Below are positions 13,001-29,660 of a stretch of 32,000 nt of DNA, in pieces. Within the stretch, counting starts at the first letter, position 1. Every line of letters begins with the position of its first letter. Under the pieces are notes generated by a model. That model searched no databases. It was not told the origin of the DNA and worked only from the letters and a program-made list of their open reading frames with translations. Source of the stretch: Nanobdellota archaeon (GTDB taxonomy: Archaea; Nanobdellota; Nanobdellia; Woesearchaeales; UBA9642); NCBI GenBank assembly GCA_021813435.1, contig JAKAKR010000007.1, forward strand, positions 66,857 to 98,856. Direction: 5' to 3'. The position numbers were made by a program, and so were the translations under genes.

Positions 13001-13831
13001 CTAAATCTTGGCGAGAATATCCATCATTTTTTGCGGTCTACAATGGTATACACTATCGAACAATATCTTTAATACAGAGAATGTGACTGCTTTTGCCTTG
13101 AGAATATGTTTATCTTCTTCAGTTCTCAAGTGTGTTTCTATGAGCTGACATTTGGTACTGATATCCCGAAGCCGATAACCGAGTGTACTGCTCGTATTGC
13201 TTTTGTGAGTCCGGATATTGACTATCTCACTATTCACATATTTACTCGTATTCTTTTTCAGGTACCTTACAAGAAGTTCTGTATCAAAATTTATCTTCCA
13301 ATCCTTATTGTAGCTTCCAATCGCTTTTAATTCGTCAGTCTTGAACATGCAAGAGTTCTGTCTTATAGGAACTATCGCTCCGCCTAACAATTTTCGTATT
13401 AATTCATGAGAATCTTCTAATCCAATATTTTTTTTATGAGAATATACCTTTCCGTTCTCTTTCATATACGCTAAATCCCCGTACGCAAGACCTATCTGTG
13501 GATTTTGTTCCATAGTATCCACAAGCGTAGCAATCGATCCCTGTTTTAGGGCATCATCATGATCCAAAATCATCAAATATTTCCCTTGTGCCATTTCAAC
13601 GCCGCGGATATAGGCGTAAGGAAGTCCGAGATGTTCAAGATAGTGATATTTGAATGAAGCGTCATCGATAGAATCAAACAATGATTTTAGCGGCGGGCTG
13701 CTTCCATCATCAACAAGAAGAATCTCAAGATTTTTATACCCATTATTTAATGCGCTTTTAACAGAGTCTGTTACATACTGCGGTTTATTATATGCAGTGA
13801 TTACAACTGTTACAAAAGGTAACTCCGTCAT
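13001..13831 (-). CDS. family 2 glycosyltransferase
   Basis: VTVVITAYNKPQYV ... ILLVDDGS ... ILDHDD is a GT2 (GT-A) signature. TATA TTTATAAA (13853-13860) is upstream. A spot count gives markedly low GC. Confidence 0.85.
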   Translation of the reverse strand: MTELPFVTVVITAYNKPQYVTDSVKSALNNGYKNLEILLVDDGSSPPLKSLFDSIDDASFKYHYLEHLGLPYAYIRGVEMAQGKYLMILDHDDALKQGSIATLVDTMEQNPQIGLAYGDLAYMKENGKVYSHKKNIGLEDSHELIRKLLGGAIVPIRQNSCMFKTDELKAIGSYNKDWKINFDTELLVRYLKKNTSKYVNSEIVNIRTHKSNTSSTLGYRLRDISTKCQLIETHLRTEEDKHILKAKAVTFSVLKILFDSVYHCRPQKMMDILAKI

Positions 13832-18047: not shown

Positions 18048-18146
18048 AACCTTTAGAAGAATCGAAGTAATATAAAGATTTTACGCTTGAATATACTCCA
18101 CTTTAGAGTAGCTAAATCTATAAATAAATACGATTTTCCTATACCT

Positions 18147-18557
18147 ATGCCGCTTGTTGACCAGGTACAAAATTCAGATACGACCTATTCTTTGAAGCTA
18201 TTTATCGATAAGAATTATGAACATTCTGAACTTTTTGATTCCTCAACGCGAATAAATGAAGCAACTATCAAAAGTGCATGTTTTTCTGATCCATTTGGAT
18301 CATATAATCCCACCACTTTTGATAAGAAGAAGTTTAGTGCCAATGAACAAGGATGTTATCTTACTGTGAAAAGTAAGTTAGGTGTTGCCCCGTTTGGGCT
18401 CTACGGCCTCAGGGAACTGGAACAATTCAAAAAAATCACTAACACTCAGGATATTTCTTGCATCAAGAATATTCCCTGCATTGAGTATGCACGCGGCCAA
18501 ACAATATTCGCAATCGGCCTTATTGTAGATAAAAAAACAACTTTTTCTAAAGAATAG
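18147..18557 (+). CDS. hypothetical protein (136 aa)
   Basis: ATG 18147 lies about 20 nt after CTATAAATAAATA (18118-18130). The TTG 18087 of the ORF track is rejected. Low GC by spot count. No motif recognised. Confidence 0.4.
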   Translation: MPLVDQVQNSDTTYSLKLFIDKNYEHSELFDSSTRINEATIKSACFSDPFGSYNPTTFDKKKFSANEQGCYLTVKSKLGVAPFGLYGLRELEQFKKITNTQDISCIKNIPCIEYARGQTIFAIGLIVDKKTTFSKE

Positions 18558-25293: not shown

Positions 25294-26355
25294 ATGGGGA
25301 TGTACGACGATTTATTGAAGCATGATGAATCATTATTCAAGAATGAGTATGCACTCGACTACGCATTTCTCCCTAAGCGCATCCCTTACCGCGAATCGCA
25401 GCAGAAATTTCTTGCGACCTGCATTCGACCGCTCCTTGCAGACCATAATGGCAGGAACGTCTTTGTGCATGGACCGCCCGGGGTCGGAAAGACTGCGGCA
25501 TTGCGCCATCTCATAAAGGAACTTGAGGAAAGCGACCAATTCGCAGACAAGCTTGAACTCATCTATGTCAATTGCTGGCACAAGAATACGACCTACAAGG
25601 TTGTGCTGGAATTATGCGACGCTGTGGGATATGCATTCACGCAGAACAAGAATACTGAGGATCTCTTCAAGATCGTGAGCCAGATCATCAACAAGAAATC
25701 CGCGATATTCATCTTTGACGAGATCGATAAGGCAGAGGATACGGATTTTCTCTATATTCTCTCAGAAGTCATCTACAAGAAAAGCATATTCCTCGTGACT
25801 AATTACAAGTCATGGATACTCGAACTTGATGATCGGATACGCTCGCGACTCCTTTTGGAGCAGGTCGAATTTCCGCAGTATACTGAAGATGAGATGCGCG
25901 GGATATTGCAGGAACGCATTTCTTATGCCTTTACCGAGGATTGCGTTGATGCAGATGCATTGCAGCTCATTGCGCATAAGGCTGCAGAATTCAAGGATAT
26001 CCGCATCGGACTCTTTATGCTGCGCGAGGCAGGATTCATTGCTGAGGAGAAGGCATCGCGACGAATCACACTCATGCATGCGCAGCGTGCAATTGAAAAA
26101 CTTGCACAATTCTCTATCAAGAATACTGATGAACTGGATGATGAATCAAAATCAATCCTGAAAATAATCCGCGACAATTCCGGACTCAAGATCGGTGATC
26201 TCTATAAAGTCTATGAGAAGACCGGCGGCAAGATTTCTTACAAGACATTCCAGCGCAAGATTGCAAAGCTTGACGAGGGCCGGTTCATCTCGCTCGAGCG
26301 CCAATTCGCCGGCGGAAACACAACCATTGTGAACAAGAAACTGACTGAGTATTGA
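25294..26355 (+). CDS. cdc6: Orc1/Cdc6 replication initiator
   Basis: Walker A HGPPGVGKTA, Walker B IFIFDEIDK and a C-terminal winged helix. N-terminal LDYAFLPKRIPYRESQ is typical for Orc1/Cdc6. Confidence 0.95.
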   Translation: MGMYDDLLKHDESLFKNEYALDYAFLPKRIPYRESQQKFLATCIRPLLADHNGRNVFVHGPPGVGKTAALRHLIKELEESDQFADKLELIYVNCWHKNTTYKVVLELCDAVGYAFTQNKNTEDLFKIVSQIINKKSAIFIFDEIDKAEDTDFLYILSEVIYKKSIFLVTNYKSWILELDDRIRSRLLLEQVEFPQYTEDEMRGILQERISYAFTEDCVDADALQLIAHKAAEFKDIRIGLFMLREAGFIAEEKASRRITLMHAQRAIEKLAQFSIKNTDELDDESKSILKIIRDNSGLKIGDLYKVYEKTGGKISYKTFQRKIAKLDEGRFISLERQFAGGNTTIVNKKLTEY

Positions 26356-26452
26356 TGGAGTGTTGATTAGCGGGTATCAATGATAGCACGCGATTAGTTC
26401 TATTTTTGTATGCATTTGCACTGGACACACTAGACTTTTCTGCGCAGGGTAT

Positions 26453-26563
26453 TTAAAGAACTTCTTGCAGTAATAGATCATTCACGCAGCTGATGAAGCT
26501 GATACTGAATAACATACCCAATGGAAACAACCCCTTTGCAAGCACCCCAAGGATTGTTTTCAT
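26453..26563 (-). CDS. tentative 36-aa hydrophobic mini-ORF (MKTILGVLAKGLFPLGMLFSISFISCVNDLLLQEVL)
   Basis: Hand translation: ATG 26563, TAA 26453-26455. An AT-rich TATA-like stretch lies just upstream on the minus strand. No SD and no conservation evidence. Confidence 0.2.
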   Translation of the reverse strand: MKTILGVLAKGLFPLGMLFSISFISCVNDLLLQEVL

Positions 26564-26624
26564 TTGTGTATATTTTATTTTCGCAACAGAGCACTGGCGC
26601 AATCGCGCCATAACGGAGGAAAAG

Positions 26625-26771
26625 ATGACACAAACAACAACTGCAACGACCGGATTTACGGCAATACCTGAAGAGACGTATAGGTACCAGAACGATGACC
26701 TGGTATTTATTGAGGGATTGTTCTACAACCAGATCATGGCACTCTCAAAACAGGCGGCAAAAGTCGCATGA
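26625..26771 (+). CDS. small hypothetical protein (48 aa)
   Basis: ATG 26625 lies 4 nt after GGAGG (26616-26620). The ORF-track extension back to 26493 is rejected. Confidence 0.4.
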   Translation: MTQTTTATTGFTAIPEETYRYQNDDLVFIEGLFYNQIMALSKQAAKVA

Positions 26772-26838
26772 TCACGCATCATCCCCTGCACTGCAAGCAG
26801 GATAGTGTATCATTATCACATTGTTGGAGGTGGCTACA

Positions 26839-26955
26839 ATGAGAAAAACATCCGCACGGAAAAGAATCATGGGATTGCTTGAGGAATACGAGAACCGGGA
26901 TCTCTTTGATGAACGCATATCACTCATGGAACGAAAGCTCGAGATAGCAGGATAA
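26839..26955 (+). CDS. small hypothetical protein (38 aa, MRKTSARKRIMGLLEEYENRDLFDERISLMERKLEIAG)
   Basis: Below the ORF-track size cut-off and found by hand. GGAGGTG (26826-26832) lies 6 nt before ATG 26839. TAA is at 26953-26955, followed by a T8 tract. Confidence 0.35.
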   Translation: MRKTSARKRIMGLLEEYENRDLFDERISLMERKLEIAG

Positions 26956-27125
26956 TCAGTTTTTTTTATTTCTATTTCTACGAGTAGATTCTTCTTTTTT
27001 TATTTATAAATTATTCATCACTTCTTATATATGGCTTATAAATAATATATTGTTAAATTATATACTTCACGACCACAATACATATAAATTGAATTATTAG
27101 AATAGATACCGGTGGAGGCGATAGC

Positions 27126-28253
27126 ATGACAATTGTTGTATCCCAAAACGGCAAAGATGCGCGGATTCTCGAAAAAGAGATTATTGATAAAGAGAATTAC
27201 CTTCAAGAATATATTTTTAATAATCCTGAATCTGTTAAAATTTACGATATTAAAGAGGATACAAAGCTTCTTATTGTTTCTAGAGAATTTCCTACGAACA
27301 GCGGGCCAATTGATGCTTTAGCATTGGATAAGTATGGCAATATCTACATCATTGAAACAAAACTTTACAAGAATGCTGACAAGAGGAAGGTGGTGGCGCA
27401 AGCATTGGATTATGGTGCTGCACTATGGAAGAAATTCAATGATTTTAACAAATTTAAATCTATTATCAGTGAATCAGTTGTAAAGCAATTTGACCAAAGT
27501 TTAGAGGATAAATTCATGCAGTTTTTTGGATTCCTTGAATATGATGATACACTTAAGTTGTTGGAGAATGCCAGAGACAATCTCGACAAAGGACACTTTA
27601 AATTCGTCATACTAATGGATAGCGTGGATGAGCGATTGAAAGATCTTATCTTGTTTATGAATGAAAACAGTGATTTTGAAATATACTGTGTTGAACTTGA
27701 ATATTATAAACATGATTCGTATGAGATAGTTATACCCAAACTGTACGGAGCAGAATACAAGAAAACGCAATCTAAAGAAACAATAAATTCAACCGCAGCA
27801 CCGATATCAAAAAACGATTTTATAGAATACTGTGACACAAATGTTCATGAGCGGGTAGAACGTCAAGTTGTTGACGAACTGTTGCAATTTGCGGAATCAC
27901 AAGCGGACAGAATGGGCTGGGGAAGAGGAAAAGAACCCAACTTTACATTCCGTGTAGAATATTCACCAGGAAAATATATCACACTATTCCAGTTATGGGC
28001 GCATGGCAGAATCAATGTTTATGGTTGGCTGATGGGTGGTCTGTTAGGAAACCCTGATCTTAAACCATACAACGAAGAGATAGAGAAATACTTCAAAGAA
28101 ATAACAGCTATCACTGGGAAAACAGCAATAGTCAATATGCGTGAAACCCAAGAATTCAGCTACAAAGTATTTTCAACCCCTGAAAAAATGAATGAATTCA
28201 AAAAAGCAGTATTGAGATTAAAAACGGCATTAAAAATACCAAAACAAATGTAA
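27126..28253 (+). CDS. PD-(D/E)XK nuclease-fold protein (NucS/DUF91-like core) with uncharacterised C-terminal half
   Basis: GPIDALALDKYGNIYIIETKLYKN fits the restriction-endonuclease-like D ... (D/E)-x-K core. It is followed by VVAQALDYGAALW and FVILMDSVDERLKDLILFMNENSDFEIYCVELEYY. GGTGGAGG (27111-27118) precedes ATG 27126. Confidence 0.6.
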   Translation: MTIVVSQNGKDARILEKEIIDKENYLQEYIFNNPESVKIYDIKEDTKLLIVSREFPTNSGPIDALALDKYGNIYIIETKLYKNADKRKVVAQALDYGAALWKKFNDFNKFKSIISESVVKQFDQSLEDKFMQFFGFLEYDDTLKLLENARDNLDKGHFKFVILMDSVDERLKDLILFMNENSDFEIYCVELEYYKHDSYEIVIPKLYGAEYKKTQSKETINSTAAPISKNDFIEYCDTNVHERVERQVVDELLQFAESQADRMGWGRGKEPNFTFRVEYSPGKYITLFQLWAHGRINVYGWLMGGLLGNPDLKPYNEEIEKYFKEITAITGKTAIVNMRETQEFSYKVFSTPEKMNEFKKAVLRLKTALKIPKQM

Positions 28254-28264
28254 ACACGATTAAA

Positions 28265-28879
28265 ATGAATGTTGAAAAATTGATTTATAGAGCAAATTGC
28301 TTTTGTGTCGAACGTAAGTATAGTATAGCTCTAAGAATTTACGAGAAGATACTGAAATCTAATCCAAATAATAAAGACGCTCACAGAGGAAAAAAATCAT
28401 GCCTTTTCGGCTTAAAAAGATATGATAAGCTGATCGCTATCTGTGATAAAACTTTAAAGATTGATCCAAAAAATTTTCGAGTAATAGAAGAAAAGATTAG
28501 TTGTCTTCGTAACTTAGGAAAACACAAACAAGCTCTCAAATTAAACGCGTATTATCTTAAGATTCGACCTTATTATTTTCACGCATTATTTGACCGAGGA
28601 ATCATTGCATATCAGCTAAAAAAATACTCCGAATCGATAAAGGCATTTAATCTTGCACTACACAGGAAAGCAAATGGGTATAAACGTGACGAATTCCATA
28701 AAAGAGATTTAGGCTATGCTCACGTCCATATGGGTAATGCATGGAAAAAGCTGGGAAAGAACGACAAAGCAAAAGACGAGTATGTATGGGCGATGCAAGC
28801 GTGGCCTAGAAAAGATATAGCATTCTTCATGAGAATTATACTTAAAGAATTAGACGAGATAAAGAAGACGCATTCTTAA
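28265..28879 (+). CDS. TPR-repeat protein
   Basis: There are several 34-residue repeats of the TPR pattern (for example YSIALRIYEKILKSNPNNKDAH, YDKLIAICDKTLKIDPKNFRV, YSESIKAFNLAL, HVHMGNAWKKLGKNDKAKDEY). It starts 11 nt after the nuclease stop. Confidence 0.75.
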   Translation: MNVEKLIYRANCFCVERKYSIALRIYEKILKSNPNNKDAHRGKKSCLFGLKRYDKLIAICDKTLKIDPKNFRVIEEKISCLRNLGKHKQALKLNAYYLKIRPYYFHALFDRGIIAYQLKKYSESIKAFNLALHRKANGYKRDEFHKRDLGYAHVHMGNAWKKLGKNDKAKDEYVWAMQAWPRKDIAFFMRIILKELDEIKKTHS

Positions 28880-29015
28880 ATAGAAACTGCGCTAGTTATT
28901 CAAATCATATATTTCATTTTTACAGCTAAAAAACATCGGGATTTTAGTTCGTGTTATATTCTTCGTTAACTTTTTCTTTCAATACCTTTTTAAATCTGCA
29001 AAATCTCCTCCTAGT

Positions 29016-29660
29016 ATGATTATCTTAAATTTTGACGAGTACAACACGCACCGCAAGACCCTGCTCCGCGATTTGCATCACTCGGTTTTCGTTTATCCGA
29101 CAGATACGATCTATGGCATCGGCTGTGATGCAACAAATGAGAAACTCGTTCAGAAAATCCGGCTGCTCAAGAAGAGCGCGCAGCCATTCTCGATCATTGT
29201 CCCGAACAAGGACTGGATCTATCATCATTGTGTGATGACTGCAGAGGCCGAGGAGTGGGTAAGAAAGCTTCCTGGACCGTATACGCTGATTCTGCGTTTG
29301 AAAAACAAGAATGCAGTCGCGCGCAATGTGCATAATGTAAAGGGGGCTGATTCCCCGACTATTGGTGTGCGTATGCCAAACCATTGGTTTCTTGCAGTAG
29401 CATATCAGCTTAATCGTCCGATTATAACAACATCGGCAAATGTCACTGGCGGAGATTTTATGACATCGCTGGACACGCTCGATCCGCAGATAAGGACTGC
29501 AGTCGACTACATATTCTATGATGGGCCGAAACAGGGCGTGCTTTCTACACTTATCCATCTTGAGGGAGCTGCGGTCGTGGTGCAGCCCCGGACACCGATA
29601 AAACGCTCATCTCCTAAGATACAATTTCCTATTGAAGAAGTAAAGCTTGTCGAAAAGTGA
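29016..29660 (+). CDS. tsaC: threonylcarbamoyl-AMP synthase, YrdC/Sua5 family (YrdC-domain-only form)
   Basis: VFVYPTDTIYGIGCDA, KKSAQPFSIIV, PGPYTLIL, GVRMPNH and TTSANVTGG match the family. TATA-like TTTTTAAAT lies about 21 nt upstream of the ATG. Confidence 0.85.
   Translation: MIILNFDEYNTHRKTLLRDLHHSVFVYPTDTIYGIGCDATNEKLVQKIRLLKKSAQPFSIIVPNKDWIYHHCVMTAEAEEWVRKLPGPYTLILRLKNKNAVARNVHNVKGADSPTIGVRMPNHWFLAVAYQLNRPIITTSANVTGGDFMTSLDTLDPQIRTAVDYIFYDGPKQGVLSTLIHLEGAAVVVQPRTPIKRSSPKIQFPIEEVKLVEK

Follow-up and report, generated by a model that had tools for sequence, protein, structure and literature searches.

Within a 32,000-nt stretch of contig JAKAKR010000007.1 from a Nanobdellota archaeon (hereafter the window; all coordinates count from its first letter), a low-GC block of about 2 kb between the genes cdc6 and tsaC carries a gene for a 375-aa protein and, 11 nt further on the same strand, a gene for a 204-aa protein that consists of tetratricopeptide repeats (TPR). 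Here we find that the 375-aa protein belongs to a large, unnamed family of predicted stand-alone nucleases, in which an N-terminal PD-(D/E)XK module is joined to a fast-evolving C-terminal domain, and that the horizontal acquisition of the block by this archaeon is well supported. An earlier interpretation made from the letters alone, referred to below as the sequence-only reading, had taken the two genes for a candidate undescribed conflict or defence system built from a nuclease effector and a TPR sensor. Both open reading frames (ORFs) are present at the positions it gave (Table 1), but the module that it proposed is not borne out. Judging by the company that its relatives keep, we lean instead towards the nuclease being a single-polypeptide restriction-like or conflict endonuclease, in which the variable C-terminal domain would set the target or the trigger. 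For the proposal as it was posed, the main value of the present analysis is corrective: a "nuclease plus TPR system" is not conserved.

The assignment as a nuclease concerns the first 215 or so residues. Pfam places NucS_C here below threshold (E 8e-4, 19.8 bits against a gathering cut-off of 24), Foldseek returns the NucS structures 2vld and 5gke as the best matches of the module (E 2e-3), and D63, E77-x-K79, Q92 and Y96 align with the catalytic D/ExK/QxxxY residues of Pyrococcus abyssi NucS (2vld). These results bear out the restriction-endonuclease-like core proposed by the sequence-only reading, and the three peptide strings that it quoted are all found in the translation. Across 198 homologs, D63, E77, K79, Q92 and Y96 are conserved in 196, 198, 197, 197 and 197 proteins, respectively, so that each is retained in at least 196 of them and a general loss of the D...ExK residues was not seen. 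As such, the N-terminal part is a NucS/RecB-like module with an intact, near-invariant active site. A helical insertion occupies residues 100-156 (27423-27593) of this module, which is completed by a second beta-alpha-beta part (FVILMD...EYY).

The protein has 1,994 database homologs at E up to 1e-3, and of 185,579 species genomes, 483 contain a relative. Among the 120 homologs listed, lengths are typically 350-375 aa and M1 is invariant; none of those listed has a precomputed Pfam domain, and any name they bear is "hypothetical". Among the best 80 of the 483 genomes, the majority are labelled Patescibacteria, with a few other bacterial labels and one metagenome-assembled genome of Nitrosopumilales. 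The exact window protein is present on 12 contigs, all with an identical context. Furthermore, more than 200 plasmids of Klebsiella, Enterobacter and Escherichia (e.g. NZ_CP140258.1:66210-66434) contain an unannotated short region with 45.6% identity to nuclease residues 24-98 only, perhaps a fragment of a gene, perhaps a small related domain.

The two halves of the protein have evolved very differently. In residues 1-215 the mean identity is 59% between the window protein and its homologs and 66% over all pairs, while in residues 216-375 it is 17% and 22%, which amounts to a strong contrast in rate between the two domains. A profile built from 17 aligned C-terminal sequences (A2) recovers 189 of the 202 family members, and the C-terminal half is therefore one fast-evolving domain and not a collection of unrelated tails. 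Modelled on its own by AlphaFold, this domain is predicted with confidence, at a pLDDT of 87.2 and a pTM of 0.84. The sequence-only reading could not assign this half, and we had no more success: Foldseek gave no match in the PDB (best E 0.47) or in BFVD (best E 0.23), and neither did a profile search of PDB sequences or a Pfam scan of 17 members. DUF4268 was considered and rejected, as neither the protein nor any of the 17 C-terminal domains has a corresponding Pfam match and the probability that hhalign assigns to an alignment with a DUF4268 protein is 0.1. When the window's C-terminal sequence was run with full HMMER over 1.84 billion representatives, it found seven proteins, one of which (P0124, a PEGA-repeat surface protein) was judged spurious. 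Two others, P0123 with a more divergent N-terminal module and P0127 with an N-terminal region that has no match to the PADLOC candidate PDC-S11, carry the domain beside these regions and thereby hint that it may be modular. The A2 profile retrieved only two fragments from a database of 5.8 billion proteins, a search in which the word prefilter was apparently limiting.

So how novel is this nuclease? It is a relative of a known kind of PADLOC candidate, with a different accessory domain. The PDC systems are 145 untested PADLOC candidates proposed through "guilt-by-embedding", their genes being lodged in loci of BREX, DISARM or Type I restriction-modification systems (bioRxiv 10.1101/2024.01.29.577857); in a haloarchaeal survey, PDC-S11 was only statistically associated with resistance to one virus. 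PDC-S11 is a single-gene candidate, the models of which (PDLC04909-04916) include NucS-like and DUF4268 proteins. PDLC04916 matches residues 10-232 of the window nuclease (E 1e-18) over profile positions 12-210 of 358, and the likeness covers a single gene of about 350-380 aa, a homologous N-terminal module including the helical insertion and the second beta-alpha-beta part, and the restriction-modification and recombinase company shared by the nuclease family. Where the two differ is the C-terminal half, which in the window protein is not DUF4268 and is unmatched by the PDC-S11 models, whereas a true PDC-S11 protein with DUF4268, encoded in locus L169, matches end to end (positions 4-315 of 318, E 6e-122). 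The word "undescribed" in the sequence-only reading thus fails for the N-terminal module and holds for the C-terminal half. The embedding on which PDC-S11 is based is also seen in the nuclease family, some homologs being immediately followed by Type ISP, IIG or III genes and others lying close to Type I genes, but not for the window copy. The models of PDC-S18 and PDC-S02 match the nuclease weakly, over its first ~100 residues and its core; the matches are partial and low-scoring, and the accessory domains differ. PDC-S02 (DUF8426 plus NucS_C) lies inside a Type I locus, in the same island of L169 as the relative P0123. In that island (Table 1), three different NucS-like nucleases surround one Type I restriction-modification system, and P0123 is located directly upstream of the PDC-S11 gene.

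The genomic company of the homologs was inspected within 6 kb in the best 80 of the 483 genomic loci, with single-linkage clustering of ORFs that a simple script had called. Of these 80 loci, 40 have TerS, TerL or a large serine recombinase and 41 an N6_N4 methylase, the other 39 having no member of the methylase cluster. What recurs is a cassette of a ParB_N-N6_N4 methylase (~445 aa), an N6_N4 methylase (~250 aa), a TerS-like helix-turn-helix (HTH) protein, TerL (phrog_38, E 4e-82) and a serine recombinase, to which a Cro/C1 HTH protein is sometimes added, and in L197 a tyrosine integrase takes the place of the serine recombinase. No portal or capsid gene lies beside the cassette TerL within 6 kb, and the whole resembles an integrative element of small size, possibly of satellite type, in which the slots for cargo vary. 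The nuclease gene may flank the cassette on one side or the other, or be inserted between TerL and the recombinase, and its orientation varies as well; because of this varying position, it behaves as cargo and not as a fixed part. At several other loci, the nuclease gene is immediately followed, on its own strand, by a Type ISP, Type IIG (MmeI/Eco57I-like) or Type III Mod+Res system, a PLD-SNF2 helicase or DUF2779. Taken over all 74 immediate downstream genes, the picture is heterogeneous, with five LD-carboxypeptidase, four Eco57I/MmeI-type, three recombinase and two N6_N4 methylase genes among them. Seven further close homologs adjoin Type III restriction-modification with SNase, a serine recombinase, a Dam/ParB/TerL/integrase block, a Type IIG-like methylase or a Type I island, and 22 loci on IMG/VR contigs show like company, several of them carrying the methylase/terminase/recombinase cassette. 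Mobile-element and restriction-modification neighbourhoods recur among the inspected members of the family, but the window copy has no terminase, methylase, recombinase or restriction-modification gene nearby. A phage origin was considered as well and rejected, since neither the INPHARED phages nor PHROGs gave a match.

In the archaeon itself, the block stands out by its composition. The sequence-only reading had noticed a low GC content from spot counts, and the deviation turns out to be clearer than these implied, with 0.31-0.36 across 27001-29000 against 0.42-0.53 in the flanks, and a fine profile in which the block extends from about 26900 to 29010. The nuclease gene (GC 0.350; 0.33 at third codon positions, GC3) and the TPR gene (0.338 and 0.31) have the lowest GC and GC3 among the 36 ORFs of the window (mean GC 0.434, standard deviation 0.038), lying about 2.2 and 2.5 standard deviations under the mean, respectively. 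The flanks are housekeeping genes as that reading had it, Cdc6 on the left and Sua5/TsaC on the right. Of 80 metagenomic loci fetched for encoding Cdc6 relatives (45-86% identity), 27 keep the order lig-(CNNM)-cdc6-[variable]-tsaC-metallophosphoesterase-rtcB, with a cdc6-tsaC interval that spans 0.5-5.9 kb and differs in content between loci, and none of the 80 has a match to the nuclease or to the TPR protein. In the closest relative, L089, whose Cdc6 is 86% identical and which keeps the 92-aa ORF and the small ORF downstream of cdc6, 251 unrelated bases stand where the window has 2,037 bp. Pairwise alignment puts the true edges of this segment at roughly 26985 and 28965; it matches the low-GC block, and contains exactly the nuclease gene, the TPR gene and an AT-rich leader. 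Since none of the 80 related loci encodes either gene and the interval is variable, the horizontal acquisition claimed by the sequence-only reading is well supported, as a recent event in this archaeon, and the block combines atypical composition with presence/absence polymorphism at a conserved syntenic site, as expected of a genomic island. The edges show no convincing terminal direct or inverted repeats, the island has no recombinase and the site no integrase, and no Rfam family, hence no tRNA gene, was found above threshold anywhere in the window.

In Patescibacteria, the GC of the homologs follows that of their hosts (r 0.71, no significant offset), and the gene is therefore compositionally foreign in this archaeon only. 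One homolog, in locus L053 (BTXY01000001.1), belongs to Candidatus Microsyncoccus archaeolyticus PMX.50 and is 44% identical to the window copy, which is not specially close. We take this organism to be the Patescibacterium reported to live on methanogenic archaea, and such a lifestyle would make a physical route for transfer of the nuclease gene from bacterium to archaeon conceivable. The cdc6-tsaC interval (26356-29015 in the window; the matching interval in L089-L162) is moreover a length-variable hotspot in the related archaeal contigs, where 10 of 47 ORFs encode Nudix proteins that match PADLOC PDC-S07, and the other cargo includes small membrane proteins, EamA, PurA-like, methyltransferase and kinase genes and one tyrosine integrase (L114). 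That this hotspot could be a defence island was considered and rejected, as the relatives fill it mostly with genes for Nudix proteins, transport and metabolism; for the same reason, the local context in this archaeon adds nothing to a defence reading.

Together, these observations suggest the following course of events. The block of about 2 kb entered the variable cdc6-tsaC interval of an uncultivated archaeon by horizontal transfer. Elsewhere, mostly in Patescibacteria, the nuclease gene travels alone, either as cassette cargo or directly upstream of Type IIG, ISP or III genes. The conserved N-terminal module would cut DNA, and the variable C-terminal domain would decide on target or timing, by recognizing foreign DNA or a foreign factor or by being triggered by it, with the outcome that the host, or its mobile element, is protected against invading DNA. 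As a working analogy only, this arrangement is reminiscent of Shedu (SduA, DUF4263), likewise a single-gene nuclease that combines a conserved PD-(D/E)XK module with a hypervariable non-catalytic domain. The variable domain of Shedu is N-terminal, and the domain order of the window nuclease, with its variable domain at the C-terminus, is therefore the reverse; Foldseek against Shedu (8ps4) gave an E of 0.45 and a probability of 0.25, and a Pfam scan at E up to 1 gave no match of the nuclease to DUF4263. If the immune or conflict role is true, this would be a common defence gene of Patescibacteria, which are small, host-dependent bacteria, that Pfam, PADLOC and PHROGs see partly or not at all. 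Moreover, it would be a clear-cut example of how a conserved catalytic module can be linked to a domain that evolves fast and has no assigned fold, and would record gene flow between candidate-phyla bacteria and archaea.

We must however take into account several points that weigh against a restriction-like or conflict role. The role rests on association, and PDC-S11 is itself listed as an untested candidate, the match to which spans only about 55% of its profile. For a defence gene, the identity of about 60% that the N-terminal module keeps between phyla is unusually high. Homologs were absent from PHROGs and from the INPHARED phage genomes, and the cdc6-tsaC hotspot is without recognised defence systems in the relatives. 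In addition, the neighbourhoods come from the best 80 of 483 loci, within 6 kb, and depend on the simple ORF calling and single-linkage clustering described above. Finally, so close a link with TerL and methylase genes could reflect a part that the nuclease plays in processing the DNA of the element itself.

This last point leads to the rival that we hold to be a minor possibility, namely that the nuclease serves the mobile element, through terminase-linked DNA processing, recombination, exclusion or addiction, instead of host immunity, and that the archaeal copy is a stranded remnant. Such a role would fit with the gene adjoining TerL, TerS, ParB-methylase or serine recombinase genes in half of the inspected loci and on viral-flagged contigs, and with the unusual conservation of the catalytic module. 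A dedicated function is harder to reconcile with a position and orientation that vary relative to the cassette, with the half of the loci that are without a cassette, several of which have restriction-modification genes instead, and with a window that has none of the cassette genes nearby; nor does any INPHARED phage genome or PHROG family have the nuclease. The methylases of the cassette raise another thought, that the nuclease supplies the cutting half of a Type II/IIS-like restriction-modification pair, with the neighbouring N6_N4 methylase as its mate and the C-terminal domain in DNA recognition. Type IIS enzymes consist of a catalytic module and a variable domain, an architecture that the window protein may be said to resemble, and about half of the loci do have such a methylase within 6 kb. 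The other 39 and the window have none, the order of nuclease and methylase genes is not fixed, and the methylases are part of the ParB-methylase/methylase/TerS/TerL block typical of phage-borne orphan methylases, all of which makes this pairing improbable. To a housekeeping mismatch-repair nuclease of the NucS/EndoMS type we give next to no credence. NucS/EndoMS proteins of ~220-250 aa have an N-terminal DNA-binding and dimerisation domain followed by a C-terminal nuclease domain. The window protein shares with them (2vld, 5gke; NucS_C, PF01939) the RecB-like PD-(D/E)XK fold and the aligned D, ExK and QxxxY, and NucS provides its best structural match and weak family matches. These fall far below the family cut-offs, both for NucS_C as given above and for the NCBIfam models (NF003270, 27.2 bits against 216; NF002876, 16.3 against 252), and residues 17-134 align with NucS positions 124-232 only, without a match to the N-terminal DNA-binding domain. 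In the window protein the nuclease domain is N-terminal, has a 57-residue helical insertion and is followed by another domain, which agrees with the sequence-only reading that this is not canonical NucS. Furthermore, NucS is a core gene, while the window gene is accessory and mobile: it is missing at this locus from all related archaeal contigs, and its family is patchily distributed over species genomes, in mobile or variable contexts.

There remains the question whether the TPR gene belongs to the system. A genuine two-component system, with the TPR protein as sensor or gate of the nuclease and both genes moved as a unit from an unsampled donor, is consistent with the shared strand, the short spacer and the absence of an oligo-T tract within it, with the near-identical GC and GC3 of the two genes, with their position in one segment that the closest relative lacks, and with the common context in all 12 contigs that carry the exact nuclease. 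That the 204-aa protein is all TPR, as the sequence-only reading had it, is confirmed by Pfam (TPR_2, E 6.5e-13; TPR_1, E 9.2e-13; TPR_16, E 5.3e-11). The co-occurrence that such a system would entail is what fails. By phmmer against all ORFs, no TPR relative is found within 6 kb of the 80 genomic homologs other than the window's own copies, and TPR families are absent from the 25 most frequent Pfam families listed for the 74 downstream genes. There is no TPR gene beside the seven further close homologs either, and tblastn of the TPR protein on the 22 viral-contig loci gave no match. Among 5.8 billion proteins, the TPR protein finds only itself, and it has no PADLOC match; in the PDB it comes closest to consensus or designed TPR proteins, and its plasmid matches are generic ones. 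The nuclease family clearly works without TPR. Since TPR genes are missing beside every homolog inspected, and searches with the TPR protein brought no homolog to light, a two-gene system finds no support here, and we regard it as unlikely; the TPR gene appears to be a local coincidence, at most a lineage-specific accessory, and not a conserved partner of the nuclease family. Nevertheless, given the common GC and insertion and the spacing of 11 nt, it probably arrived in the same event as the nuclease gene, and the gene arrangement suggests that the two are probably co-transcribed. A more elaborate version, to which we attach little weight, would join both ideas: a widespread single-gene immune nuclease, whose hypervariable C-terminal domain of previously unseen fold provides specificity or trigger, would have passed from Patescibacteria-type elements to archaea, where the orphan TPR protein would have been recruited as a regulatory partner to give a two-component variant.

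Table 1. Coordinates of the features discussed, in the window unless a locus is named.
Feature	Coordinates	Strand	Basis
Low-GC segment, 2,037 bp	26933..28969	none	blastn against L089, boundary alignments, GC profile
AT-rich leader, GC about 25-33%	26957..27125	+	direct sequence reading, GC profile
Stand-alone NucS-like nuclease gene (NUC), 375 aa	27126..28253	+	ORF; homologs
Conserved PD-(D/E)XK (NucS/RecB-like) catalytic module, residues 1-215	27126..27770	+	Pfam, PADLOC, Foldseek
Predicted active-site codons: D63 27312-27314, E77-T-K79 27354-27362, Q92 27399-27401, Y96 27411-27413	27312..27413	+	NucS alignment
Fast-evolving alpha/beta C-terminal domain, residues 216-375	27771..28250	+	AlphaFold model, profile searches
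Orphan all-TPR protein gene, 204 aa, pI 9.9	28265..28879	+	Pfam TPR families
cdc6/orc1, left synteny anchor	25294..26355	+	Pfam; 27 related metagenome loci
tsaC/sua5 (Sua5_yciO_yrdC), right synteny anchor	29016..29660	+	Pfam; synteny
92-aa ORF between cdc6 and nuclease gene	26493-26771		
Small ORF of ~38 aa, MRKTSARKRIMGLLEEYENRDLFDERISLMERKLEIAG, between cdc6 and nuclease gene	26840-26956	+	
Island of L169, in order: serine recombinase, P0123, DUF4268 protein (full-length PDC-S11), DUF4352, HsdM, DUF8426-NucS_C protein (PDC-S02, E 1e-158), 179-aa ORF, HsdS	L169:268-9039		
Cassette loci (Patescibacteria)	L046:1611-9554; also L011, L015, L019, L021, L026, L028, L030, L055, L066-L073, L078, L079, L083		
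Further cassette loci	IMG/VR L174-L178; L197		

The leader upstream of the nuclease gene opens with the oligo-T tail of the preceding small ORF and continues with several TATA-like stretches up to its 3' end, GGTGGAGG, about 8 nt before the nuclease ATG. As such, it presumably provides the promoter and the ribosome-binding site of the gene pair. A scan for sigma-70 promoters and terminators returned fewer matches than shuffled sequences, the consensus being bacterial and the host archaeal. The small ORF itself stops right at the left edge of the island, its DNA is conserved in L089, and the oligo-T tract follows it. Elsewhere in the window, two other ORFs have a low GC: a 156-aa ORF without Pfam match at 18087-18557 on the plus strand (GC 0.355, GC3 0.32), and a family-2 glycosyltransferase gene at 13001-13831 on the minus strand (GC 0.372), both of which may be further acquired genes.

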